Below are positions 6,946-45,979 of a DNA stretch of 64,000 nucleotides, piece after piece; position 1 is the stretch's first letter, and every line of letters begins with the position of its first letter. Source of the stretch: a virus; IMG/VR virus record IMGVR_UViG_3300045988_159010; one strand, given 5' to 3'. The notes under the pieces were generated by a model, which was not told the origin of the DNA, did not search any database, and saw only the letters and a list, made by a program, of their open reading frames with translations. Both the position numbers and the translations under genes were made by a program.

Positions 6946-7338
6946 AAATGCAATGAACGAATTTGAAACGAGTGGCGCGGAACTGAGGTGTCGATCCCCA
7001 TCCCTTTCATAGGACCACTTGTTTTCAAGACAAGGCTTACCGCCGGGCAAGTTAATTCCGCATATCATAATTGGCTATAGACCCTTAGCTATCTATGATT
7101 TAAATACGCCACAATTACTATGAAGCTTAGCGATACCAATTATTTTAATAAACAAGACTCATTGAAAAGCCAAAATAAAAACGCGGAATTTAGCTTACTA
7201 AATCAGCTAAAAAGAAAAAACTTTTCAAAATATACTTTATTTTCTTTATTATACTTTTTCATCTATTAGTAATAAATAAGTATTGTAGAGCCTTTACAGG
7301 CAAAAGTTTGCTGAAAATGAGTCTTAATACGTATGGCA

Positions 7339-7419
7339 TAGGAGCAAGGGATTCGAACCCTGGATGTGCAGCTACAATTAGTTTTGGAGACTAACCCAAT
7401 CGACCACTCTGGCACTCCT
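7339..7419 (-). tRNA. tRNA with anticodon loop CUCCAAA (anticodon CCA, Trp-like) and an unusually long variable arm
   Basis: reverse complement gives 7-bp acceptor stem with two G-U pairs, stem TTAGT/ACTAA around loop CTCCAAA, T-arm GGGTTCGAATCCC; no encoded CCA. Confidence 0.4.
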
Positions 7420-7427
7420 ACATATAA

Positions 7428-7859: not shown

Positions 7860-8051
7860 TATTTTCTCCTTAACAATTTTAACAAAGCCCTAAAATCATT
7901 TGCTGGATTTGAACCAACTCTAAAAAATTTTTGCAGAATTTCTTATTTATCCTATTAAAAATTGCTGTGTGGGCTTTTCATAAAACATTATTAATTATAC
8001 TCATTTAATCAATTAGCGTTACCCAAGATACACCACGTGGAGGTTTGATTA

Positions 8052-8122
8052 ATGTATCTCTTGCGGGAGTGGGATTCGAACCCACGATAACCAGTTTATG
8101 AGGCTGGTGTCTTAACCACTTG
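8052..8122 (-). tRNA. tRNA-Met (anticodon CAU)
   Basis: GCGGGATCGTCAAGTGGTTAAGACACCAGCCTCATAAACTGG...GGGTTCGAATCCCACTCCCGCA; loop CTCATAA. Confidence 0.6.
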
Positions 8123-8189
8123 ACGATCCCGCAATATTAACAAGACAATTTTTATACGTTGCGCTACCAATTACGCTATATCCGATCTT

Positions 8190-8267: not shown

Positions 8268-8341
8268 TGGTGGAGCCAGAGGGAATCGCACCCTCGACTT
8301 TGAATTAAATTCAACGTTTTCCTACCATAAACTATGTCCCC
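8268..8341 (-). tRNA. tRNA with anticodon UUA (tRNA-Sup(TTA)-like; would decode UAA and by wobble UAG) - candidate suppressor, needs tRNAscan-SE
   Basis: GGGGACATAGTTTATGGTAGGAAAACGTTGAATTTAATTCAAAGTCGAGGGTGCGATTCCCTCTGGCTCCACCA; palindromic anticodon arm TTGAATTTAATTCAA centred on TTA; acceptor 6/7 pairs; CCA encoded. Confidence 0.4.
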
Positions 8342-8659: not shown

Positions 8660-9331
8660 TTAATAAGAAATAATTTTTTCCCTATTAATTAATTTATATT
8701 TATGAGAAGTTAATTTTTTATGACAAATAGGACATAATATGATTAAATTCTCTAATTCATTGTGTTCTCTATTTTCATTAATATGATGAACTTCTAAAAT
8801 ATCTTTATCTTCATCCCAACCACAGATAGCACATTTATGAGGATAATATTTAAAAGCATTTTTACGATAAGTATATATACTTTCAATATTATTTCCATAA
8901 TGATTTGGTTGAATTTCTTTCAAACCAAACTCTATCCGTTGAGCTAAATCTTTATGTTCTCTACAGCAAAAATATATTCCACTTTTTGAATTATTCAATT
9001 TAGAATTTGGACGAATAAATTTCTTTCCACAATAAGCACATTCTAATTCAGTTCTATTTGCAGAAAATTTTTCATTTTTCTTTTCTTCTGAACATTTAGG
9101 GCAAGAGCATCTTACTTCTTTTGGACCTCGCATAAAACATTCTGCGGATGCTTGAAAAACAATATCATGAATATTGCATTTTAAATCTATTGGTTTAGAT
9201 TTTCCTTTATATTCACTTATAACAAAATATTTATCCCCTACACATTCATAAACTCTTTGTTCAAATTCTTCTTGAGTTAATTTTCTAGGCATTTGATTCA
9301 ACTCCTTTTTTCCTTCTATTATATTTAGCAA
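8660..9331 (-). CDS. HNH homing endonuclease (223 aa)
   Basis: HHINENREHNELENLIILCPICH HNH motif plus Cys-rich Zn fingers; embedded in tRNA array. Confidence 0.7.
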   Translation of the reverse strand: MLNIIEGKKELNQMPRKLTQEEFEQRVYECVGDKYFVISEYKGKSKPIDLKCNIHDIVFQASAECFMRGPKEVRCSCPKCSEEKKNEKFSANRTELECAYCGKKFIRPNSKLNNSKSGIYFCCREHKDLAQRIEFGLKEIQPNHYGNNIESIYTYRKNAFKYYPHKCAICGWDEDKDILEVHHINENREHNELENLIILCPICHKKLTSHKYKLINREKIISY

Positions 9332-9431
9332 AATTTTTGAGGAGTTTAATTAACTTTGCCCGATTTTTATTTTTGTCCACTATTAGCATTACCCATCATC
9401 TACCTCGTGGCGGTTGTGGATCTTAGATGAC

Positions 9432-9507
9432 TGGAACACATGAGAATCGAACTCATCTGCTTTTCTCCTTGCAAGGGAGACGACCACTCCATGCAGTCCC
9501 GTGCCCC
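9432..9507 (-). tRNA. tRNA-Ala (anticodon UGC) with G3:U70 identity pair
   Basis: GGGGCACGGGACTGCATGGAGTGGTCGTCTCCCTTGCAAGGAGA...ATGAGTTCGATTCTCATGTGTTCCA; loop CTTGCAA. Confidence 0.55.
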
Positions 9508-9585
9508 AAATATGATAGTTATAAAACTTAATCTAACCAGATTAATAGAACGCTCTATCAAGTTCTATGTAACAAAATCGCTTAT
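9508..9585 (-). promoter_or_regulatory. second copy of the conserved palindrome-containing element upstream of a tRNA
   Basis: CCCCAAATATGATAGTTATAAAACTTAATCTAA...AATAGAACGCTCTATCAAGTTCTATG matches 8342-8415. Confidence 0.4.
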
Positions 9586-9690: not shown

Positions 9691-10314
9691 TTAATTATTT
9701 TCAATAAATTTCCATTTATAACCATAAGCACTTTGTCTTTTACCTAAACATACAGCGCTTATATGAGTAATATCAGGTTTATTAATAGCTCTACCTGCAC
9801 TTCCAATAGATGGAAATATATTTAAAATTTTTCCAGTTTTTTTATCACATTGAGCAACTTTTTTACCTGATTTAACTAAATTAACTTCTTGTTGAGAATA
9901 AATTTTTTCTTTTTTTTCTTTAAGAATTCTTTCTACACTATCAGAAGAAATTCCTAATTTACGAGCAGTTTCTTCAATATTTTTAATTTCTTGATAAGAA
10001 GCAATAATTAAATCATAATCAAGATACTTTTTACCATCTCCGCCTATTGTAGCATTATATCCCCATTTAAAAGAACCTAATTTTTCAATCCAATAAGTTT
10101 CTCGATTATTAGCATCATCAGTTTCTTCAATTAGTTCAATATGAAAATGTTCTACTCCATATTTTCGCATTGCTGAATATAATGGACGTTTTTCATTGCG
10201 CTCTCTAAAAGCATCTTTACAATGTTCTTTAAAACGTTTTTCAATAGAAAATTCAGTTTTACCAACATAAATTTTCTAATTTATATCATTAATAATCTAA
10301 TAAATGTATGCCAT
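9691..10314 (-). CDS. GIY-YIG homing endonuclease (about 207 aa) with two in-frame TAG codons in the GIY-YIG motif region
   Basis: AAAAAGGAG-N11-ATG; MAYIY-TAG-IINDIN-TAG-KIYVGKTEFSIEKRFKEH (GIY-YIG) continuous with track ORF 9691-10170 (YGYKWKF C-terminal domain). Confidence 0.6.
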
Positions 10315-10991: not shown

Positions 10992-11124
10992 TGGTGCGCC
11001 AGGCGGGGATCGAACCCGCGTTGCCCTGCTTATGGTGCGGAATATTGGATTTGAACCAATACATTAAAATGCTACTTACATCAATTCCACAAAGGCAGGT
11101 GCCATACCACTTGGCCACTGGCGC
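10992..11124 (-). tRNA. tRNA-Gln (anticodon UUG) interrupted by a 58-nt tRNA-like insertion in the anticodon loop (insert about 11032-11089)
   Basis: Outer gene GCGCCAGTGGCCAAGTGGTATGGCA-CCTGC-CTTTG[insert]AA-GCAGG-GCAAC-GCGGGTTCGATCCCCGC-CTGGCGCACCA has a perfect acceptor and Gln-type D-arm; the insert GTGGAAT...TTGGTTCAAATCCAAT-ATTCCGCACCA has its own acceptor-like stem and T-arm. Confidence 0.45.
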
Positions 11125-12960: not shown

Positions 12961-13581
12961 TTTCAATTTTTCTTTAATTACAATATGCCAAGTCATATTA
13001 TTAGTATTACTTCTTTTTCTTAATTCACCAGTTGTTTTACTGATAAAATAATCAAAAGGATTAAATACTGAACAATAAGTACCAAATAAATTTTGATCAG
13101 AACAAAAAACTTTATTATTTTCTTGATAAAATGCTGTATTAAATTTTAAAAGAGTTTCTTTATCTTTAATTGGAGCCGATGAAGTGCCGCTTCTTTTGCA
13201 ATAAGGCTTTTGAATTTCAAAAGTATAATTATTAAAAAAATCATCAAAAGCCACAAGAGAAATATTATTATTATTAATAACAATAAAAGCCCCTACTTGT
13301 TTAGCTCTATAATGTTCTTTTACAAAATTTATACAAGTTTCTTCATCATTTTTACCCAAATAAATAGCTTCAGCATATGGGTTATTACTGATGGTACTTT
13401 TAGTAAATTGCCCGCATCGAGCACCATTAGTAATATCTTTTACTTCAATATAATAATTATATAAAGGAGAATAAATATCTGAAATAGTAGAATCATTACG
13501 TCCTTGGTAAACTGCATCATTATCATAGTTATTTTTAAACCATTCAAATGCTTTCTTTTCACTTTTCTCCCAATTCATCAT
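12955..13581 (-). CDS. hypothetical protein (208 aa) translationally coupled downstream of the C5-MTase; possible restriction or MTase-associated partner
   Basis: AAAGGAACAATATT-ATG; start overlaps MTase stop region; no recognisable motif. Confidence 0.4.
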   Translation of the reverse strand: MMNWEKSEKKAFEWFKNNYDNDAVYQGRNDSTISDIYSPLYNYYIEVKDITNGARCGQFTKSTISNNPYAEAIYLGKNDEETCINFVKEHYRAKQVGAFIVINNNNISLVAFDDFFNNYTFEIQKPYCKRSGTSSAPIKDKETLLKFNTAFYQENNKVFCSDQNLFGTYCSVFNPFDYFISKTTGELRKRSNTNNMTWHIVIKEKLKN

Positions 13582-14518
13582 AATATTGTTCCTTTATCCC
13601 TTTAAAAATATGAATTAACACATTTCTATCAATGGCATTGCCCAAGCAAAAACCCACTTCTCTAGGGGTTAAAACAGAACAAATCTTTTCTGCTTCTGCT
13701 TTAGTCCAACCCATTACTTTACAAATCTCAATTGGAGTAAGTTTATAAATACTATTATTACGAAGATACAAACCACCGCTTGATCCGGCTTTTCCTCCAC
13801 CAGAAGCAGTTAATGTAACTCCTTGTCCAAATATAGAATAAATTCGATTTCCTTGACCACCATTTTTATAATCACAGAGTTTTTTAGCTCCATTATAATA
13901 TGGTGTAGTAATATCACTTGGGCCATCATAACTATCAATGAAATATTCTTCGTTAATTGGCTCTAAAAAATCTTTTAAAGTAGTTTTAACATTTTCAGCT
14001 AAAGGGAAAATAAACTTTTTTAAAGGAGAAATTACTGAAACCATGAATACACGATCCCTAATAGTTGCTCCGCCATATTCATAAGCTTTTATTTTCTTCC
14101 AACTAGATACATAACCTAATTCAGCTAAACTATTAATCCACTCTTGAAATTTTGGCATAAAAGTATTATTACAAATATTGGCCACATTTTCCATTAAAAG
14201 AATTTTTGGCTTTGGAGAAGAAAGCAAGAGACGATATACCTCATAAATTAATGAAGAATTTTTTCCTTGAAAACCTTCTTGCTTCCCTGCAATAGATAAA
14301 TCAGTACAAGGGAAAGAATAAGTCCAAATATCTGCATAGGGTAAAATATCAATTTTTGTGATATCACCAAAATTATTATATTCACCATTCAAAACTTTAT
14401 ATGCTTTCAATGGTCGTTCATCAATTTCGCTAATACCTATTGATCTAATATTTGGATCAATTTTAACCAAAGCTGAAATCTATGTCCCAATTCCCGCAAA
14501 TAATTCAATAATAGTCAT
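13559..14518 (-). CDS. DNA cytosine-5 methyltransferase (Dcm-type, about 319 aa); in-frame TAG at 14480-14482
   Basis: GAGGGAAAGA-ATG; motif I ELFAGIGT-TAG-ISALV, motif IV FPCTDLSIAG, ENV motif LLMENV; track ORF truncated at TAG. Confidence 0.65.
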
Positions 14519-14573
14519 TCTTTCCCTCACTCTCTATATAATATAATAATATTTTTATTAAAAATCAAATTTA

Positions 14574-14813
14574 TTAAACTTCAGAATGACGAACAAAAAA
14601 TTCAATAAATAAACCTTCATCTTGCTTACTATCACAAAAAAGTTCCAGTTCATCGCCATGCTGACCAAGTAATGCACCAAGTGCAATATACTGTGAAAGT
14701 GCAGATTTCATATTGTATCTATCGCCCTGCGGACTAACCAGCCATACATTACTATGAGCACGATTAACTGCTGAAATAAAATCTTCAACCTGCTTAATAT
14801 TTGTCAACTTCAT
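14574..14813 (-). CDS. hypothetical protein (79 aa)
   Basis: ORF, moderately GC-richer than surroundings. Confidence 0.4.
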   Translation of the reverse strand: MKLTNIKQVEDFISAVNRAHSNVWLVSPQGDRYNMKSALSQYIALGALLGQHGDELELFCDSKQDEGLFIEFFVRHSEV

Positions 14814-14829
14814 TATTTTAATTCCTTTC

Positions 14830-14988
14830 TATTGGAATATGGTGCTCCCGTCGGGATTTGAACCCACATCTGGCGATTTGGCCCAAAATGTTAGATTTGA
14901 ACTTACATCTTTCTTGCGCATAAACTATTTTACCATTTAAACTAATTTTGGATAAGTCGCCGGCTCTGACCAATTGAGCTACGAGAGC
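14830..14988 (-). tRNA. tRNA (Ile-like, anticodon UAU if spliced as CTTAT...AA) interrupted by about 73-nt insertion (about 14879-14951) in the anticodon loop
   Basis: GCTCTCGTAGCTCAATTGGTCAGAGCC-GGCGA-CTTAT[insert CCAAAAT...ATTTTGG]AA-TCGCC...GTGGGTTCAAATCCCGACGGGAGCACCA; insert has terminal 7-bp inverted repeat and an internal GTTCAAATC T-loop-like motif. Confidence 0.4.
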
Positions 14989-15079
14989 ATTTATTTAATT
15001 TCTTATTGATTACTTATATATTATATTATATTTTTTTAATTTTTTCAAATTAAGAAATTTACCCAAGACTTTTTATACT

Positions 15080-15154
15080 TGGCTCCAAGGAAGGAATTTG
15101 AATCCTTATTTTCAGAATTAACTCTGATGAATTATCCAGTTATTCGACCACGGA
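15080..15154 (-). tRNA. tRNA-like gene with palindromic anticodon arm TCAGAGTTAATTCTGA (possible UAA-anticodon Leu or degenerate)
   Basis: T-arm AGGATTCAAATTCCT, CCA encoded, acceptor 6/7; anticodon loop apparently 6 nt. Confidence 0.3.
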
Positions 15155-15260
15155 AAAAAGTTTAAGTTGCTGTAAAAGCCTTTCTCTTTTCATATAAATA
15201 TTATATAATATTTTTTATTAAAAATCAAATAATTATTTTATTCAAACAAGACTTATTTGG

Positions 15261-15345
15261 TTTGGTTCCGCTGGGTTTAACCGCTTCCCTACCTCCGCCA
15301 TATAGTGGTGGGGAGGGCAGGATTCGAACCTGCGTAGCATTCGCG
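15261..15345 (-). ncRNA. rearranged tRNA halves: a 3'-half (T-arm plus CCTCCCCACCA) lies upstream of a 5'-half-like segment (GGCGGAGGTAGGGAAGCGGTTAAACCC)
   Basis: T-arm GCAGGTTCGAATCCTGC plus CCA at 15306-15333 with no 5' partner; 5'-half-like sequence on the wrong side. Confidence 0.2.
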
Positions 15346-15423
15346 ACGGATTTACTGTCCATTTCTTTGCTGTTAAAGTCTTTATTTTCTTTATTTTGTA
15401 TATATATTATATATTAATTTTTA

Positions 15424-16125
15424 TTAAATATCAAATTTATAAATTTTTTCTTGTGAATGATTATCAATAATTTCAATTAATTCATTAAGATAATTTTTAT
15501 TTTCTGCAACTTTATCAATTTCAATAGCTAAATTTAAAGCTGTATAACTAAAAGAGAGCTATTCTTTAATTCCAGGAATTTTTTTTATTTCTTCAGTAAA
15601 TTGCTATAAATTACTTTTATTCAAATAAAAATTTCCCAACAATAAAAATAAATTAGTTTTACCATTAATTAAAAAATAAATCTAATCTAAAATTTTCCAA
15701 AATTGTTTATCTATTTTTTTAAAATTATTAAATAGTAATTTTAAACAATAATTTATATAACTAATATTTTGTTCAAAATTAAAATTATTAAAATCAGTGT
15801 ATATTAACTAATTATCAAAATTATAATTATTATTAATAATCTACAATAATAATTTATATCTATTAATAAAAATTTTATCTTGAATTTCCATAATTTTATA
15901 TAATTCTATACCTTTATATTGTTTTAATATATCTTTATGTAAAATATACTTTTGAAATAAATATTCATAAATAGATAAAATCTAAATATCCATATCATAT
16001 TTTTGAAAGTTTATATTTTTATAATCACTTATACAAAATAAAATATTATTTTGTATAAGATACATATAATATATTTTACAATTATATATATTTTCAATAA
16101 ATGTTTTTAAATTATAATGGTTCAT
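15424..16125 (-). CDS. Asn/Ile/Lys-rich hypothetical protein (about 233 aa) with at least 7 in-frame TAG codons; last gene of the rSAM cassette
   Basis: continuous frame MNHYNLKTFIENIYNCKIYY...KYDMDI-TAG-ILSIYEY...IEIIDNHSQEKIYKFDI-TAA only if TAG is sense; start assignment uncertain. Confidence 0.35.
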
Positions 16126-16762
16126 TCCTACCAGTTCCACTACATGTGCCAGTACAACTTGTGCATAATCCAGAACAACTTCCTCCACACAATCCAGTAC
16201 AATCGTTAGCACAATGTCTTGTACAGCTACCGCTGCATCCGCTACACCCAGTCTGGCATCCACCTGAGCAAGAACCACTGCATCCATCACAACTGCCACT
16301 ACAACTGCTTCGACATCCGCCTCTGCAAGTGTTTTGGCAGCCTCCTTGGCAAGTATTCTTACAACTGCCTAAACAAGTTCCCTGACATTGTACTCCACAA
16401 CTTTCACTACAACTAGTAGAACATAATCCAGTGCAATAAGCTGAACATCCAGTATTCGAATCAGTTAATCCCATAGCTTGATAAGCTGTAATTTTTGCCT
16501 CTAATGTACTTAAATCATCATCTTTAATAACATTTATATTTTCATTCTGATTTTCAATATTTATTGCCGCCATAGGTTCTACCAGTTTTGTTATATGTTC
16601 TTTTGAAATAACTTTTCCATTATTAGGCTAAGTAGTATAATCATAAGAAGTCCCTCCATATGAACTTACACTACCTATATATTTACGACGTAAACATTCA
16701 GCCTTTATTTTTTTCTTTAATTCATTGAATCTATCAGAAGTTATTGTCGTGCCTATTTTCAT
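16112..16762 (-). CDS. Cys-rich repeat protein (about 216 aa): about 100-aa N-domain followed by about 28 tandem CxxxC repeats; one in-frame TAG (about 16631)
   Basis: AAGGAGGCAATGACAA-ATG; ...GGTSYDYTT-TAG-PNNGKV...CSAYCTGLCSTSCSESCGVQCQGTCLGSC...CTGTCSGTGRNEPL; immediately downstream of rSAM/SPASM gene. Confidence 0.55.
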
Positions 16763-18074
16763 TTGTCATTGCCTCCTTTATTATATTATATTCATCCTAA
16801 GAGATAATTTTTAATGCTTTTTCCATATCTCCATTAAATTTAAATCGTTTATTCGAGTTTATTTTTTTTAAAATAGAATTTAAATAATATAAAGAAGCTA
16901 GAACTATAGCATAATGCATATCACAAATATAAGTAACTCTTTTATTAACATTACCTGTTTCTTGATAATTATAAGCTGTACACCAAGAGCATCCTCCAGA
17001 AATTTCACAATCTAAACATTTTTGAGGAGATTGACTAATAACTGTTATTTCAGATAAATCTTTTAATCTATTGATGGTTAAATTATCTTGGCCTATTCCC
17101 TAATAAATATCTCCAATATAATATTCTGGCTGATTACTTATGCTATCTTCCATATAACGTAAACAGGGATAATATTTACCTTTCCAATTTAAGGCTAACA
17201 TACGACCATTCCCGCCGCACCAATTATCATTAGATAAATTTTTACTTCCATCATTAATATAAAAAATAGATAAATAAACTTTATCCCACAAATCATTATT
17301 TAATAAATAATCAGCAATTTTTTTTAACTAATAATATAATGTAGTGGCATGGTTAAGTTCCCAACCTTTTTCATACACACAATTTAGATTGATTTGACTA
17401 TAACCATTGTTTATCATTTCTAAAACAGCGTCATATAAATAATCTATATTAAATGGAGAGATAGTCATTTTACTCCCGATCCATTTGTTATAATTATGGC
17501 TATAATGTAATGCGGCGGACAATGCTTTATCATAACTACCACTACCATCAGGGAAAACTCTACAAGCATCATGTAATTTTTTATTTCCATCAATAGAAAT
17601 TGATAAACTTAAATTTTCATTATTTTTTTTAATATACTCTTGTACTTTTGGTTCAAAATATAAAATACCATTAGAACTAATTGAAATTTTATATTTAGTG
17701 ACCCAAGGATGCCGCAATTCAATCATTTTATTAATAAAATAATCAGTAATCTAATCAATTAATTCAATTTCTAAAAATGGCTCTCCACCTATAAATTCTA
17801 TTACTACTCCTGGTATTTTATAAGAGTCAATATAATTAATAACTTTACTGTCTCTTGTTAGTATCTAATCAATCATCTATTTAGCTGTATTAAAGGATAA
17901 TTTATGTTTTCCTTTATGTCCTTGATAACAATAAACACAATTTAGACAACAATCATCTGTAACCTAAAAAGTTAATGTAAATACAGCCTAAGAATTTAAG
18001 CAATCATTAGAATATAAACGACTTATAAAATCAGAAAATTCTTCAGGAATATTAACTATCTTAGGAAATAACAT
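16735..18074 (-). CDS. radical SAM enzyme with SPASM-type C-terminal domain (about 446 aa), about 8 in-frame TAG codons
   Basis: GAGGTAAATATTG-ATG; CxxxCxxC at VTDDCCLNCVYCYQGH; ISISSNG...SISIDGNKKLHD core; C-terminal Cys cluster CGGNGRMLALNWKGKYYPCLRYMED...CLDCEISGGCSWCTAYN; track shows three separated fragments joined only by reading TAG as sense; ends TGA at 16735. Confidence 0.65.
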
Positions 18075-25632: not shown

Positions 25633-26412
25633 TTAGATGCGGTCAATGTTATTTACAGTATCATCCATTTTATCATGCCAGAGAAAAATATCCTCTAATG
25701 GGTCCATACAGTTAAAATAAAAGATATTATGTCTATTTACAAAGCGGTCAACATGATGATGCCCGCTGAGCCACACATCATATGTAATCATATTCTTAAT
25801 AGTTTCAAGCCACTCTTCCATAGATGTATCTACAGTAGATTGGTCTACTACTGAAAGAAATTTATCAACTGGCCTAAGAGAATAAGGGCAAGTGTGCGAG
25901 AGCACAAGGTCAAAATGCTTGTTAGTCTGCCGAATAAGTCTCTCTACTTCTGACTTCTCTGCATCAGTCAACTGCTCATCTTCCCACCAGAGCAGATTAT
26001 TTTTAAGACGGTAATATTTATCAACAGAGTAAGCCCCGCAGATGACCAACGTGCGATATTCTCTATCTTCTGTTTTAAGATAATAAACCCCATAATTATC
26101 AAAATATTTAATCAAAGGGTAGGCCGGCTCATACCATACGTTAGCTTGGACATTACTATCCCAAATGCGTTCCATACCTTCAACATTCTCAGGACGTACC
26201 TCATGGTTACCACGCACGCAATAGATAGAATATCCAAACTGGCTTGCATACTTTTTCTTCATATCATCCCGGAATGTATTGCCACTATTGAAACCTACAT
26301 CACCAAGGATAATAATTGCGTAGTCTTTTGGATTTAAAATTCTAAACATTCTTGCGTTAAGCCATGTGAAATCGCCATGACAATCGCCTCTAATCAGATA
26401 GTCCTTGAACAT
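25633..26412 (-). CDS. calcineurin-like metallophosphoesterase (259 aa)
   Basis: GDCHGD, LGDVGFNSG, RGNHE motifs. Confidence 0.65.
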   Translation of the reverse strand: MFKDYLIRGDCHGDFTWLNARMFRILNPKDYAIIILGDVGFNSGNTFRDDMKKKYASQFGYSIYCVRGNHEVRPENVEGMERIWDSNVQANVWYEPAYPLIKYFDNYGVYYLKTEDREYRTLVICGAYSVDKYYRLKNNLLWWEDEQLTDAEKSEVERLIRQTNKHFDLVLSHTCPYSLRPVDKFLSVVDQSTVDTSMEEWLETIKNMITYDVWLSGHHHVDRFVNRHNIFYFNCMDPLEDIFLWHDKMDDTVNNIDRI

Positions 26413-26425
26413 TAAAGGTCCCTCC

Positions 26426-26617
26426 TTACGTATTTTCTTCTTTAGCCAACTCTTCCTTTAATTCTTCTACTTTTTCTATAACTGCACTAAGCACAACAGC
26501 TTGAGCACCAAATCTGGTAAAATGTTCAGTCAGCCATTTACCAAGATCATCAAAATTATTTTCAATTTCTTCAATATCTCGACTATCAATTTCAATAGTC
26601 ATATTATCTTCAGACAT
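26426..26617 (-). CDS. small acidic protein (63 aa)
   Basis: ORF. Confidence 0.4.
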   Translation of the reverse strand: MSEDNMTIEIDSRDIEEIENNFDDLGKWLTEHFTRFGAQAVVLSAVIEKVEELKEELAKEENT

Positions 26618-27425
26618 TTAACATTTCCTTTACAATTCTTTTTTTCATAATAAGATAAACAATCTTATTCATAAAATCTTCAAGCTCTTCATTACCTTCA
26701 TCCTTGGTCTTAGAACAATAATCATCAGCTACTCTTGTAATATTACTAATAGCAGTATTGGCTACAATTCGTGCAGTTTCAAGATTATAATGATAATTTT
26801 TTACATCAAGAAGATAATCACCCATTGGGGCTTGAAGACAATCTGCATATTTAACACCATCAATATAACGTCCAAGGTATCTTTCAATACGAAGTAGATG
26901 CATAAGCTGCTTGCTATCATAACCATATGTATCAATCAGATGGGCCTTAGTAGGATATCTATGTTCCATTGCATGGTATTTTTCCATAGCAATACCCTTC
27001 ATTGTCTTAACTGCCTTGTAAGGATTATAGCGTGCAATAGCTTCACGCTCATTAAGCAGTGCCTGCCACTCATTCCAATACGTACTTGATGCCATTTTAT
27101 AAGGCGTGAAGATACATTCAAGATAAGCCATATTCTGTTTCTTCAAACAATCAATAAACAAACGAATATCTTTAAAATCAATATGTTCATCATTAGGAAG
27201 AATCTTGGTATAAGATACCGGCTTCTTATTCAATACAATATCTTCAAATGAAGGAAGAACAATAAGGCGGGTATCTACATCAGAATTTTGAGTATCAAGA
27301 CCATAATTCTGGCTACCATAAGCCATTAAACTAACCCAATTTTCGCTTCTAATATTAGCTGCTTCTAAATGAGTTTCTACCTTATCCATAACCCATTTAT
27401 CTGAATGGTAATTCATAATTATCAC
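26610..27425 (-). CDS. Pol-beta-superfamily nucleotidyltransferase (271 aa)
   Basis: YGSQNYGLDTQNSDVDTRLIV matches hG[GS]-x9-13-DhD NTase signature. Confidence 0.5.
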   Translation of the reverse strand: MIIMNYHSDKWVMDKVETHLEAANIRSENWVSLMAYGSQNYGLDTQNSDVDTRLIVLPSFEDIVLNKKPVSYTKILPNDEHIDFKDIRLFIDCLKKQNMAYLECIFTPYKMASSTYWNEWQALLNEREAIARYNPYKAVKTMKGIAMEKYHAMEHRYPTKAHLIDTYGYDSKQLMHLLRIERYLGRYIDGVKYADCLQAPMGDYLLDVKNYHYNLETARIVANTAISNITRVADDYCSKTKDEGNEELEDFMNKIVYLIMKKRIVKEMLNV

Positions 27426-36879: not shown

Positions 36880-39003
36880 TTAGTTCTCCTTTTTAAAATC
36901 AAAAATTGTTTTTAATTCTTCTACTTTATCGAGCTGTTCCCAAGGGCTATTGCATTCAATGCGACCAAAATGACCGAAGCAAGCATAGGGCAGATAACGA
37001 GTATGCTTTAAATCAAATTTATGAATAATACTGCGTGGTGCAAAATCAAATGTCTGATTAACTGCATCAAGAATTTCAGCAATAGGTTTCTTCTCTGTGC
37101 CAAAACAATTAATATCAATAGATGCAGGTTCTGTCTGCCCAATGATATAAGCAACTTGAATCATGCACTTATCGCAAACGCCAGAAGCTACAAGATTTTT
37201 AGCTACATAACGTGCCATATATGCACCACTACGGTCTACCTTACTGGGGTCTTTGCCGCTAAAACAATTGCCTGTAATAAAAACTCGATTATTATATCTT
37301 AATACAAGATTATGAGAAGGTACATTAATACAATACATCCAAGGATCATTATCTTCATAATCTTCAATAGTTAGATTGGCAATTGAAGAACCTGAAGTTC
37401 TGAATGGAGTAGAATATTTATATTTACCTTGTCTTACTTCATAACAAATACTTCTACGAGTATAATTTTCACTGAATGTTTCACCTATTCTATCATCAAT
37501 AGAAAAATGAGAAGATGTGCCATAAACTGCCATAAAAATAAATTGAATAAAATCGGCTTCATCTTTATGTGTGGTTCTAAAAACACAATCTCTATCTCCA
37601 TCCCATTTAATTACTTCATCAGCAATTATTTGAGCTTGATGCAAATTGCATTTAGATAAACATTCATTCATTTTTTTATTTACGAAGGAAGGCTTATACC
37701 AAAAAATACTACAATCATTATCTGGGGTTTCCTTATAATCAAGTCCTGTTGAAGCGAATAGTTTTCTTAATGCCTCTTTTTTATATTTCTTTTTAACTCT
37801 AATTCTTCCAGTCCATCCTGAATTCTCTTTTAGAATAGTACCATCTGCACAAAATGCTACTTGAAGTCTAATTTCATCATCAGTTAAATCAAGGCCAGGA
37901 TTATCCTTAAAATCATAAGTAAAATAAATAGGGATTTGAATACTTCTAAACCCATTATTTTTATAATAATAGTCTAAAATTTCTTGACAAGTTTTCTTCT
38001 GATAATTTCCTTTAGATGTTTTATAGAGAACATTATGATTATCAGATAATATCATATCCAATGATTTATTAGTAGCAATATGATACATTTTAGTTTTAGG
38101 TAGCCTTACAAATTCACCATTAACAAATGAAATCTTGCCATCATCCCATTGAGCTACTTTATCATCTGAAGAAAATTCAGAGATTTTTTTCCACCCATTA
38201 AGGGTTAAAAATTCTGTATCTCCATTTACGCATCCACCACCATGCGGAGCGTAGCCACCATATGTATCTACAACGATTTTACGTCCTGTTAATCCAGTAT
38301 CAGCCTGGGGACCGCCCTTCACAAACTTACCTGTTGGGTTAATATAAAATTTACAATCTTTTTTAATGGCATAACCTTGAAGGGCAATATTACAAATGTT
38401 CGTAATATCGGGCGTTATTTCCTTAATACTATACTTGTCTTTGTGTTGGGCCGATACGACAATTGTATCTACCCCTTCAAAGTTGCCATCATCATCGTAT
38501 TGGACAGTTATCTGGCATTTGCCGTCAGGTAATGCCCAAGGTAGCAAATCATTTTTATACTTACTAAACATAATGACCGAGATATTGTTAGCAAGTTGCT
38601 GAGCGATAGGCATATAATTTTCTGTTTCATTGGTTGCATAACCAAACATCATGCCTTGGTCGCCAGCACCATCCCTATCAACACCCGCAGCGATGTCAGG
38701 GGATTGATTTACTACATTAATAATATATGAACAAGTGTCGCAGTTAAATCCTGCTTCATCATTGTCATAACCAATAAATCTTAAAGTCTCTCTTGCAATT
38801 TCCTGATAAGGAATAGATTGTTCTGTTTTAGCTGTAATTTCTCCCATAATATGGAAGATGCCTGGGCTAATAGTACATTCACAAGCTACTCGTGCATCAG
38901 GGTCAAGCTGGAGGACATAATCCAGAATAGCATCACTTACCTAATCACAAACCTTATCAGGGTGACCGGCAAAAACACTCTCACTGGTAAATAAATAACT
39001 CAT
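36880..39003 (-). CDS. metK: S-adenosylmethionine synthetase (MetK) interrupted by an intein; one in-frame TAG (38941-38943) aligning with conserved Gln
   Basis: GGAGGAAATATTAT-ATG; N-terminus [30 protein letters not shown] versus E. coli GHPDKIADQISDAVLD; GAGDQGMMFGYATNET; C-extein CFSGKDPSKVDRSGAYMARYVAKNLVASG...QVAYIIG...YACFGHFGR; host split at HGGG^(A/C)FSGKD. Confidence 0.7.
37267..38232 (-). mobile_element. intein (about 322 aa) with LAGLIDADG-type homing-endonuclease domain inside metK
   Basis: starts CVNGDTEFLTLNG (block A), contains LQVAFCADGTILKE, ends ...VLRYNNRVFITGN followed by Cys plus-1 (CFSGKD). Confidence 0.55.
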
Positions 39004-44569: not shown

Positions 44570-45979
44570 TTAATTATCCTCCAGAGTCATTTCTTCTTCA
44601 ATTTCTTCCATGTCCGGCACTTCGGCATCAACCTTAATTAGATTCTCAAGTACCTTAAAATTATAAGATTTATCTTTTGCAACGTCGAAACGTGTACCAT
44701 TCATCTTGCGAATAACTACACCTTCAATTACATGAGAAGAATCAATCGTAGAAGGAATATCCTCATACTTGGCAATCCGTGCGAGGAAATCCTCTTCAGT
44801 GGTGTAGATGAAACGTTCCAGTTCAGGCACAGTTTCAAAACCCATCTGTTCTGCACGCTGCTTAACAAGGTCCCAAGGATATTCAATTACTACACCTTCA
44901 GGAGTAGTATAAGTCATACGGTAAACAAAATAGCGGTTAAGCGGTCTTTCTTCATGAGTACCATCACCATAAGTGTAATAACCAGTTTCAGTACATCCAT
45001 AAGAAAAAGTGGTAGTCTTACCATACTGCTTAATAAATTGCTTATCTTTTGTTTTAGTATTATCTCCACGAGACATAATAGGAACTGCACCGCCATAATT
45101 ATCTTTGTAGAAGCCTGCAATTTCACCGAAGCATTCCTCATTAGGCAGAAGCTTACCCTTGAAACGCTCGCCCCAAGCCTTACGGAAGTCATCATTGCCA
45201 TAAAAGCCGCCGGTGCTATTGTTAGTAAGGACAGTGCGGCGAGTACCAATCAGATAACGCATTTCAGTTTTAGGGGTAAGGTGAGACTGTGCGGACATAC
45301 GCCACTTCTTCGGCAGCCAGTTGCTATGTGCAATAAGCTTGGTAAGGAAGAAACCGTTTTCGCCAACAATTGCAGTCTGATATGCGTTTCGAGAACTGGT
45401 ACCATGGACCTTCTCGGTCAAGCAGATAATGTCGCCCGGCTTAAACATATCCATATTAAAACGAAGCTGGGGAGTATCAATATGTTCTGCGAAGAATGGA
45501 TACTTAATGCGGCATTTCTTTGCAGACTTATGGTTGTGTTCGCCGCGTGCAGTAGACTCTGAAACTCTGGGCTTATGCATCGGCACATACTTCTCGGCGA
45601 TTACATGACCATTGAAGGTAGATACAATATCACCTTCGGCCAGATTACTGATGTCACCAAAAGGTGTAAGGCAAGTAAGTGGAAGGATAAGACCTTCGGA
45701 CTTATTACCGCGAAGACGAATTGCACCAATATTACGCTTCACAGGGTCAATGAAACCGCCCGCCGGATTACCATTCTCATCCTTGCGGCGGAAGAGGTCA
45801 TTTGCCTTACCAAACTCTTCACTAATTTGACCATCCGTGGGGAAATAGACGTAGAGGTCATTTTCATTCACGGATTTATCAACAATGGTAGTAATACCAA
45901 ATACTTCACAGGCATTCAGACGATTAGCATTCTCCGCAGGTCTAATGTTTTTTACTTTACAAACATATACATTATACAT
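44570..45979 (-). CDS. ATP-dependent RNA ligase-family nucleotidyltransferase (469 aa)
   Basis: motif I KVHGTS (KxHGT), motif IV EGVVIRK; N-terminal extra domain. Confidence 0.55.
   Translation of the reverse strand: MYNVYVCKVKNIRPAENANRLNACEVFGITTIVDKSVNENDLYVYFPTDGQISEEFGKANDLFRRKDENGNPAGGFIDPVKRNIGAIRLRGNKSEGLILPLTCLTPFGDISNLAEGDIVSTFNGHVIAEKYVPMHKPRVSESTARGEHNHKSAKKCRIKYPFFAEHIDTPQLRFNMDMFKPGDIICLTEKVHGTSSRNAYQTAIVGENGFFLTKLIAHSNWLPKKWRMSAQSHLTPKTEMRYLIGTRRTVLTNNSTGGFYGNDDFRKAWGERFKGKLLPNEECFGEIAGFYKDNYGGAVPIMSRGDNTKTKDKQFIKQYGKTTTFSYGCTETGYYTYGDGTHEERPLNRYFVYRMTYTTPEGVVIEYPWDLVKQRAEQMGFETVPELERFIYTTEEDFLARIAKYEDIPSTIDSSHVIEGVVIRKMNGTRFDVAKDKSYNFKVLENLIKVDAEVPDMEEIEEEMTLEDN

Follow-up and report, generated by a model that had tools for sequence, protein, structure and literature searches.

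To our knowledge, the only tRNA introns recognised to date in bacteria and phages are group I introns, which splice themselves. Introns termed 'enigmatic' have been reported in the tRNA genes of Lak megaphages (Devoto et al. 2019, Nat Microbiol, PMC6784885); one of them "may encode a tRNA", most are listed as 'no hit in rfam', and the paper offers no mechanism, boundary rule or covariation analysis. In the literature we found no paper giving a mechanism for such introns, and no precedent other than those of the Lak phages (PMC6784885). Here we describe an interrupted tRNA-Ile(UAU) gene on the minus strand of a 64,000-nucleotide (nt) stretch of viral DNA (IMG/VR record IMGVR_UViG_3300045988_159010, hereafter the window, to which positions refer unless another locus is named), together with genes of the same design in related phages. 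The anticodon loop of the gene is split by a 73-nt insert that resembles the upper half of a tRNA. While an unexplained, Lak-like kind of intron is already known, what is new here is a structural rule, the existence of natural intron-less alleles, and a testable mechanism.

Like the inserts of the window, the Lak introns are anticodon-loop inserts of gut phages, are highly conserved, and are present or absent between related genomes; those of the Lak Tyr, Phe and Gly tRNAs likewise have an acceptor-like stem and the T arm GUUCGAAUC at their end. The two groups nevertheless differ. Lak introns measure 79-114 nt and are predicted to adjoin the anticodon (starting one base after it in the tRNAscan numbering), whereas the family of the window measures 47-77 nt and lies at loop positions 34/35 to 36/37. 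By-eye comparison shows the Lak introns opening with an extra 5' hairpin and a AAAUUAAA linker, whereas the window inserts open at position +1 of their acceptor stem, and the 3' ends are CA or CUA in Lak and NCCA in the window family (GCCA in the Ile gene). Group I introns in bacterial and phage tRNAs share with the insert the anticodon-loop location and the presence/absence polymorphism, but they are self-splicing ribozymes, and the inserts described here have no catalytic core.

Other known systems resemble single steps of the route that we propose below. In mascRNA (MALAT1), mitochondrial tRNA punctuation and plant mitochondrial t-elements, tRNA-like signals are cut by RNase P and RNase Z; as proposed for the insert, a non-decoding tRNA mimic serves as the end-processing handle and flanking RNA is released. 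In those systems the flanks are not rejoined, whereas here they are tRNA halves that need ligation in order to function. Phage T4 uses Pnkp and Rnl1 to repair tRNA after anticodon-nuclease attack, and the ligases Rnl2/Rnl5 (DraRnl) seal nicks. In T4 repair as in the proposed route, a phage ATP-dependent RNA ligase reseals a break in the anticodon loop, but the T4 break is damage by a host nuclease whose ends are healed first, whereas here the break would be programmed and its ends directly ligatable. Archaeal and eukaryal tRNA introns, handled by EndA/Sen and RtcB/Trl1, are likewise cut out of the anticodon loop by protein enzymes before the exons are ligated; they depend on a bulge-helix-bulge, whereas here there is none, a different end chemistry is expected, and the junction is set by the tRNA fold of the intron. 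By analogy, the nearest functional counterparts would be tRNA-like processing signals combined with T4-type anticodon-loop ligation.

The outer tRNA-Ile(UAU) gene

Read 5' to 3' from 14988 to 14840, the gene consists of a 5' half, GCUCUCG UA GCUC AAUUGGUCA GAGC C GGCGA CUUAU, the 73-nt insert, and a 3' half, AA UCGCC AGAU GUGGG UUCAAAU CCCGA CGGGAGC A CCA. Its parts are:

14840-14988, minus strand: whole interrupted tRNA-Ile(UAU) gene, 149 nt (Rfam tRNA model, ARAGORN intron mode)
14952-14988, minus strand: 5' exon, with the acceptor 5' strand, D arm, anticodon-stem 5' strand GGCGA and loop nucleotides 32-36 (CUUAU)
14840-14878, minus strand: 3' exon, with loop nucleotides 37-38 (AA), stem UCGCC, variable loop, T arm, acceptor 3' strand, A73 and CCA

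All the tRNA elements listed in a preliminary description of the locus (acceptor, D arm, GGCGA/UCGCC stem, T arm and CCA) are present, on the minus strand at 14840-14988, and they complete a cloverleaf with a 7-bp acceptor and D, anticodon and T arms. The acceptor GCUCUCG/CGGGAGC contains one U-G pair, and the T arm GUGGG-UUCAAAU-CCCGA has one G.A mismatch, at the base of its stem. The Rfam tRNA model RF00005 matches 14843-14988 with 42.7 bits (gathering score 29; E value 6.5e-08 to 1e-05) and places the surplus bases in the anticodon loop. ARAGORN did not report the tRNA-Ile(UAU) gene in its default mode; in intron mode it detects it at 14840-14988, along with a gene of the same design at 10992-11124.

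Removing 14879-14951 in silico gives the loop CUUAUAA and the anticodon UAU, as had been anticipated, and ARAGORN in default mode then calls a tRNA-Ile(tat) of 76 nt, which has a 7-nt loop, U33 and a purine at position 37. The predicted spliced junction is ...GGCGACUUAU↓AAUCGCC..., also written GAGCCGGCGACUUAU↓AAUCGCCAGAUGUGGG (arrows mark junctions). The end of the 5' exon is set by a natural intron-less allele, which agrees with the in-silico splice, and by uninterrupted homologues with GGCGACTTATAATCGCCAGATG. ARAGORN's own reading of the gene as Trp-CCA (CU↓...↓CCAAA) is ruled out, since alleles and homologues fix the junction as CUUAU↓AA. The nested gene was found in 13 other independently assembled contigs, and it is therefore neither an assembly artefact nor random damage. 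The codon AUA, thought at the outset to be abundant, is in fact rare: the 17 long open reading frames (ORFs) of the window use it for 26 of 467 Ile codons, a frequency of 3.9 per 1000 codons.

A non-decoding tRNA mimic in the anticodon loop

The insert, previously estimated at about 73 nt and about 14879-14951, proved to be exactly that long and to lie exactly there. The CCAAAAU/AUUUUGG repeat and the T-loop-like motif GUUCAAAUC noted earlier are both found in it. The view of the insert as a hairpin with a T-loop-like motif holds for these motifs and misses the true extent, which is that of a tRNA mimic running from nucleotide +1 to CCA:

14879-14951, minus strand: tRNA-shaped insert (intron), from its nucleotide +1 to CCA-3', exactly 73 nt between loop CUUAU and AA
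14945-14951, minus strand: insert acceptor 5' strand CCAAAAU, pairing with 14883-14889
14883-14889, minus strand: insert acceptor 3' strand AUUUUGG
14927-14942, minus strand: insert D arm GUUU-AAAUGGUA-AAAU, preceded by U8 and A9 (Rfam alignment)
14890-14906, minus strand: insert T arm GUAAG-UUCAAAU-CUAAC, with an A.A mismatch at the third pair (Rfam alignment)
14879-14882, minus strand: insert 3' tail, discriminator G and encoded CCA

The inverted repeat is thus a 7-bp acceptor stem, the 3' strand of which is followed, within the insert, by G and CCA. On its own the insert scores 35.5 bits against the Rfam tRNA model, by way of its acceptor, D and T arms, with the anticodon arm of the model replaced by 15 unaligned, non-canonical nt; the 20-nt segment between the D and T arms is without a canonical anticodon arm. 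The insert has the acceptor stem, the D arm, a UUCRANY T loop and the discriminator with CCA that a tRNA fold calls for, and it lacks a decoding arm (5-bp anticodon stem, 7-nt loop). The absence of an anticodon stem and loop makes it a tRNA mimic and not a tRNA gene. That the intervening sequence between loop positions 36 and 37 is a non-decoding mimic of the tRNA top half (D arm with U8/A14) is well supported. Judged by its sequence, the insert also has the features of an RNase P/RNase Z substrate, i.e. of a tRNA-like processing signal: 7 + 5 bp, a UUCAAAU loop, the leader CUUAU, the tail GCCA and a U at position -1.

Intron-less alleles in related phages

Relatives were collected with, as anchor, the 79-amino-acid ORF just downstream of the Ile gene (14574-14813). 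This gave 14 IMG/VR loci and 80 from metagenomes, all belonging to jumbo phages of the human gut and rumen, ~150-240 kb in size (designated by L-numbers, such as L004 and L020), and a total of 1.23 Mb was searched. A blastn search with 13000-17000 returned no relatives among the INPHARED cultured phages, and a scan of genome contigs gave one match, a 4.4-kb contig in a 'Clostridium sp.' metagenome-assembled genome that is probably a mis-binned phage fragment.

In the 189-kb contig L020 an uninterrupted tRNA-Ile(UAU) lies directly upstream of the anchor ORF, whereas in L004 the gene is interrupted at this same site. With flanks that are near-identical for >100 nt on either side, the two are separated by an unambiguous 73-nt indel, CCAAGAU...GGGCCA, and their outer anticodon stems show a compensatory change (GGCAA/UUGCC versus GACAA/UUGUC). 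The exact junction GGCGACUUAUAAUCGCCAGAUG recurs in the uninterrupted Ile tRNAs of five further IMG/VR contigs and of L090. An intron-less allele that differs by exactly 73 nt supports both the exon junction and a presence/absence polymorphism, and, since it comes and goes between near-identical phages, the element behaves also as a mobile or exchangeable DNA module. The Ile insert family of 73 nt is 90-97% identical over two outer backbones that share 74% (65-68% outside the anticodon arm), and related inserts with the D arm UAAUUCAAGUAGAAU occupy position 36/37 in Glu tRNAs and 34/35 in Lys tRNAs.

Two genes of free-standing homing-endonuclease type stand between tRNA genes of the array, an HNH gene (8660-9331, minus strand) and a NUMOD1/HTH gene (9691-10170, minus strand); these may have to do with the inserts being present in some alleles and absent from others.

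A second interrupted gene and the insert family

The gene at 10992-11124 has the following parts:

10992-11124, minus strand: interrupted tRNA-Lys(UUU), loop CUUU↓UAA (ARAGORN intron mode)
11033-11090, minus strand: 58-nt tRNA-shaped insert with acceptor GUGGAAU/AUUCCGC, D arm, T arm and A + CCA

It had been introduced in the preliminary description as a tRNA-Gln, an identity that is ruled out because the Gln tRNAs of the relatives all have a CUUUGAC loop and G73; anticodon arm, acceptor and A73 identify it as tRNA-Lys(UUU). Its anticodon arm, CCUGC CUUU↓UAA GCAGG, is the same as in the uninterrupted tRNA-Lys(UUU) of L004 and L009, and its acceptor stem and A73 are those of the Lys tRNA of L011. 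ARAGORN's Met-CAU reading is likewise excluded, as alleles and homologues fix the junction as CUUU↓UAA. The spliced form, with the predicted junction CCUGCCUUU↓UAAGCAGG, is called as a tRNA-Lys(ttt) of 75 nt. The Lys insert spans its G+1 to ACCA, with the anticodon arm absent. Alone it scores 33.0 bits against the Rfam tRNA model, 15 model positions being replaced by 1 nt, and its minimum free energy (MFE) fold comprises acceptor, D and T. When the Ile and Lys inserts are aligned (MAFFT), a comparison that had been suggested earlier, they show a shared structure with a single 15-nt gap, at the position of the anticodon arm; both keep the top half and the elbow without the decoding part, and both are therefore tRNA mimics.

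Across the 1.23 Mb of relatives, ARAGORN in intron mode returned 1009 tRNAs, of which 63 (50 distinct) carry inserts of at least 25 nt, and 34 of these 63 occurrences fall into an NCCA-tailed, tRNA-shaped class. Junction analysis and a table of parts singled out 24 distinct tRNA mimics among the inserts, with lengths of 47-77 nt, in answer to the suggested search for further copies in related phages. Seven kinds of outer tRNA are involved:

Ile(UAU): CUUAU↓AA; also CUU↓AUAA with a different insert family
Lys(UUU): CUUU↓UAA, CUU↓UUAA
Gln(UUG): CUUU↓GAC
Glu(UUC): CUUUC↓AA
Asn(GUU): CUGU↓UAA
Leu(UAA): CUU↓AAAA
amber suppressor (CUA): CUCU↓AAA

Junctions thus lie at 34/35, 35/36 or 36/37, and this variability among outer tRNAs indicates that the cut sites are dictated by the insert and not by the outer tRNA. 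Members span their own +1 to the 3' NCCA exactly, so that their removal gives a canonical 7-nt loop. Indeed, after in-silico splicing all 25 sequences are called as ordinary tRNAs, 75-86 nt long and bearing the expected anticodons, with 7-nt loops, U33, a purine at 37 and outer anticodon stems paired 5/5. In 33 of the 34 occurrences no other tRNA in the locus shares the anticodon of the interrupted gene.

Over the 24 inserts, 165 of 168 acceptor pairs and 111 of 120 T-stem pairs are formed. All of them close the T loop with a G-C pair, the NCCA tail is present in 23 (UUCA in the other), U8 in 22, and a U at -1, the base preceding the insert, also in 22; bacterial RNase P prefers a U at this position. 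In an alignment of 18 sequences, 97.2% of the cells of the acceptor and T stems are paired, as against 62% for shuffled and 36-43% for slid partners. Compensatory double changes occur in 11 of the 12 pairs, and the covariation score is 0.979 versus 0.267, a level reached in none of 500 shuffles. Taken by itself, the 73-nt Ile family shows compensatory changes at three acceptor pairs (CCAAAAU/AUUUUGG, CCAAGAU/AUCUUGG, CUAAGAC/GUCUUAG). The central non-canonical segment AUGCGCAAGAAAGAU is nearly invariant, and in other inserts the anticodon-arm region is reduced to short hairpins. The number of distinct inserts, the seven outer tRNA kinds, the covariation and the intron-less allele together bear out the first interpretation of the inserts as a genuine class and not random damage.

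Short NCCA-tailed tRNA mimics are found nested 31 times and free about once; the free count comes from a scan with a T-loop filter, an earlier motif scan having been too permissive (952 spurious 'free' matches). The only clearly free-standing CCA-tailed mimic, of 57 nt, lies at L015 5139-5195, where the flanks are not tRNA halves. In one insert family (L021 9770-9840, L029 9868-9932, L037 825-895, L082, L011) the T loop GGCAGNA/GGCGGUA replaces UUCRANY, and the same unusual T loop occurs in some ordinary tRNAs (L090 5285-5360, L036 3333-3424).

The relatives also carry a second, non-tRNA-like class of inserts, 36-52 nt long, with the motifs GUCUUGAAAAAG...GCAA or AACAGCAAGUUU. Most of these separate the D arm from an anticodon arm that is itself intact, and some of the tRNAs concerned have the anticodon UUA and so are of ochre-suppressor type (L051 1471-1592, L056 148-268, L059-L061, L065, L071; L034, L039; L010 5362-5613, L082, L086, L092). 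As to the genetic code, an in-frame TAG at codon 8 of the anchor ORF in L004 and L006 (10022-10024 in both) aligns with a Gln (CAG) of the window and of other relatives, which argues that part of the phage lineage reads TAG as Gln. For the window itself a stop-to-stop ORF comparison was ambiguous, and the TAG-to-Gln recoding is seen in relatives only.

A proposed excision and sealing route

We propose that the insert is a tRNA-mimic intron that would be removed by RNase P together with a cut after CCA, the exons being rejoined by an RNA ligase; from the sequence comparisons, we give this proposal an even chance of being correct. Within the precursor the insert would fold as a tRNA, and RNase P of the host would cut at its 5' end, leaving a 5' exon that ends in ...CUUAU-3'OH. 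An endonuclease cutting right after CCA, for which enzymes of the RNase Z/BN type or RNase E are candidates, would free the insert, and the 3' exon would then begin with 5'-P-AA.... Held together by the outer acceptor and anticodon stems, the exons would form a tRNA nicked in its anticodon loop, with 3'-OH and 5'-P ends, and an ATP-dependent RNA ligase, with the phage ligase at 44570-45979 as candidate, would seal the nick. RNase P and RNase Z do leave 3'-OH and 5'-P ends, and tRNA end-processing enzymes recognise the coaxial acceptor and T helix, the elbow of T loop and D loop, NCCA and the U at -1. The conserved parts of the insert are the very ones that these enzymes recognise, while the anticodon arm, which they do not need, is dispensable; a route of the RNase P/Z type would be the simplest. 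For the second cut there are precedents, as RNase Z of T. maritima cuts just after the encoded CCA and RNase E can make a CCA end directly (PMC7479834). The hosts of the phages are likely bacterial, by analogy with the recoded gut phages of PMC10879173 and with the Lak precedent.

The window contains a candidate for the sealing step and two other genes suggestive of RNA end healing:

44570-45979, minus strand: candidate exon-sealing ATP-dependent RNA ligase with N-terminal OB domain, DraRnl/DRB0094-like (PF09414, PF21189)
25633-26412, minus strand: calcineurin-like phosphoesterase
26610-27425, minus strand: RlaP-type ('RNA repair pathway') nucleotidyltransferase, beside the phosphoesterase

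The ligase has both an OB and a nucleotidyltransferase domain, with motif I intact (EKVHGTS). Against TIGR02306 it scores 45.3 bits, short of the cut-off of 151 for this curated family, and a PDB sequence search with it gave no match; it is thus best regarded as a divergent relative of DraRnl/DRB0094 and not as an equivalog. Together, phosphoesterase, RlaP and ligase look like a kit for RNA end healing and sealing. Ligases of the DRB0094 type are 140-fold enriched in gut phages with theta ribozymes, in a role that was left unexplained (Kienbeck et al., PMC10879173), and the sealing of nested tRNAs, if it takes place as proposed, would explain this enrichment.

More broadly, the nested genes could represent a third way in which proteins splice tRNA, used in phage-infected bacteria and combining a mobile mimic intron, cuts of the RNase P and RNase Z/E type, and DraRnl-type sealing; we hold this wider claim only tentatively and rate it a little below an even chance. 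Under such a scheme the nested design may make the supply of Ile-UAU, Lys-UUU, Gln, Glu, Asn and amber-suppressor tRNAs dependent on a phage enzyme, which could provide a timing switch or guard against anticodon nucleases. The hypothesis is concrete: it specifies the substrates, the sites of cutting and the chemistry of the ends, with RNase P, cleavage after CCA and a phage ligase as its elements. The enigmatic introns also acquire a rule: a tRNA top half from +1 to CCA, the removal of which restores the loop, and for which intron-less alleles exist. If the proposal is true, it would amount to a new splicing mechanism built wholly from housekeeping tRNA enzymes and would account for the abundance of DraRnl-type ligases in recoded gut phages. 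It would also imply that standard tRNA finders miss ~3-6% of the tRNA genes in these genomes (34 or 63 of 1009), including suppressor tRNAs relevant to genetic-code calling, and it would offer synthetic biology a compact design for conditional tRNAs.

Evaluation of the route and of alternative explanations

Several observations count against the proposed route. The MFE of the Ile insert is no lower than expected (z = -0.03), its predicted fold is not a cloverleaf, and its T stem contains the A.A mismatch. For the whole interrupted gene the folding z is -1.5. As thermodynamic folding is weak in such AU-rich RNAs, we have relied on comparative evidence instead. Some inserts depart from the NCCA rule: a Gln group (L052-L063, e.g. 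L056 5064-5194) has no CCA and a 2-nt tail, CUU↓GGGAAUG...CAUUCUC UC↓UGAC, and the mimic inserts at L012 4530-4668 and L013 3735-3873 also lack CCA, with a G.A first pair plus one nt. These CCA-less inserts sit in Gln and Asn tRNAs, and their 2-nt tails or mismatched first pairs mean that the 3' junction rule is not uniform. As to the enzymes, CCA inhibits the RNase Z of many bacteria, and if the 3' end were trimmed by exonucleases in the usual way, the 3' exon would be lost. No gene for RNase P, RNase Z or a splicing endonuclease is found among the ORFs of the 64-kb window, so that host enzymes must be assumed. Ligases of the DraRnl type have been characterised on nicked duplexes and are not known to have been characterised on anticodon loops. 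Low-sensitivity ligase queries of IMG/VR returned 2 contigs with the single sequence and 24 with an alignment, and only one contig from these queries is among the carriers of the nested Ile gene; tblastn with the ligase gave no match on the relative loci, because these span only +/-10 kb. Finally, ligase, RlaP and phosphoesterase could instead serve repair after attack by anticodon nucleases, or theta-ribozyme-linked processing of tRNA 3' ends.

One could also speculate that the RNA of the insert is itself the functional product, with the outer tRNA mainly its carrier and maybe never rejoined. Such an RNA could be a decoy or inhibitor of host nucleases that target tRNA, or a regulator, and both RNAs could be functional. 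The insert is indeed more conserved than the tRNA that hosts it, at 90-97% across backbones 74% identical; the retention of CCA, U8 and the T loop would suit a stable RNA able to take up tRNA-binding proteins, and the near-invariance of AUGCGCAAGAAAGAU points the same way. What this explanation fails to account for is that every removal restores an exact 7-nt loop, that the outer stems change compensatorily, that the interrupted gene is the only copy for its anticodon in all but one of the 34 occurrences, and that the central part is freely lost (from 77 down to 47 nt) while the parts needed for end processing are retained, and we consider it unlikely. Less likely still, and in our view improbable, is that a selfish, tRNA-derived mobile mini-element has settled in anticodon loops and left the outer genes as decaying pseudogenes. 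The polymorphism at one locus, the occurrence of one insert family in different outer tRNAs and the HNH and NUMOD1 genes in the array are what such an element would lead one to expect, and the rarity of AUA in the window means that loss of the tRNA might be tolerated. However, the outer genes are undecayed, with 5/5 anticodon stems and spliced forms that all pass as tRNAs; a compensatory change separates the outer anticodon stems of the two alleles; in 33 of 34 cases the locus holds no redundant gene; the boundaries always keep the 7-nt loop, unlike those of a random insertion; and the nested state persists between phages in which the neighbouring protein is only 53-60% identical.

A conventional intron, whether of the bulge-helix-bulge type, of group I or a small self-cleaving ribozyme, is very improbable. 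The anticodon loop is a known site for all these intron types, and weak HDV-like matches occur elsewhere in the same tRNA array. A bulge-helix-bulge (two 3-nt bulges, 4-bp helix) is rejected on the geometry: what separates the outer anticodon stem from the insert acceptor is an asymmetric internal loop that holds the junctions, of 5 x 6 nt in the Ile gene and of 4 x 7 and 3 x 8 in relatives. No splicing endonuclease was found among the ORFs of the window. Group I introns are typically >200 nt, and 47-77 nt is too small for their core. With an Rfam search of 14800-15200 returning no group I or ribozyme family at E <= 10, a group I intron with its catalytic core P3-P9 is rejected on the 73-nt size and the absence of a family match, and a small self-cleaving ribozyme on the latter. 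A further argument against these intron types is that the position of the junction follows the insert and not the outer tRNA.

Other features of the tRNA array and the window

At 15080-15154 (minus strand; also at L002 9660-9734) lies a conserved tRNA-like gene with acceptor UCCGUGG/CCUUGGA, T arm AAGGA-UUCAAAU-UCCUU and G + CCA, in which the anticodon stem UCAGA/UCUGA encloses only 6 nt (GUUAAU); ARAGORN reports it as 'tRNA-??? (ta)' at a relaxed threshold only, and Rfam makes no call. The tRNA at 8268-8341 (minus strand) is found by Rfam (48.5 bits) and not by ARAGORN; its loop AUUUAAU gives the anticodon UUA and thus a possible ochre (UAA) suppressor, with homologues at L001 2642-2715 and in L023 and L037.

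Two tRNAs of the array have long variable arms. The first, at 6973-7061 (minus strand), is an 89-nt class-II-like tRNA with loop CUUGAAA, anticodon UGA (Ser), CCA and an odd T loop, AUCGACA; it is missed by ARAGORN, receives only a weak non-tRNA match from Rfam, and is kept in L001, L004 and L005. The second, at 7334-7421 (minus strand), measures 88 nt, has the anticodon CCA (Trp) and a variable arm as in class II, and scores higher with the Rfam tRNA-Sec model (38.8 bits) than with the tRNA model (33.8 bits).

The HDV-like matches are to the Rfam HDV-like F. prausnitzii ribozyme, at 8005-8060 and 9364-9431 (both minus strand; 24.9 and 24.5 bits, E ~0.5). They lie directly 3' of a CCA-less tRNA-Met (8060-8134) and tRNA-Ala (9431-9508), a tRNA-adjoining layout like that of the theta ribozymes of recoded gut phages (PMC10879173). 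Away from the array, 36880-38847 (minus strand) encodes an S-adenosylmethionine synthetase, the central and C-terminal domains of which are split by ~340 residues that have no Pfam match and could be an intein or an inserted domain.

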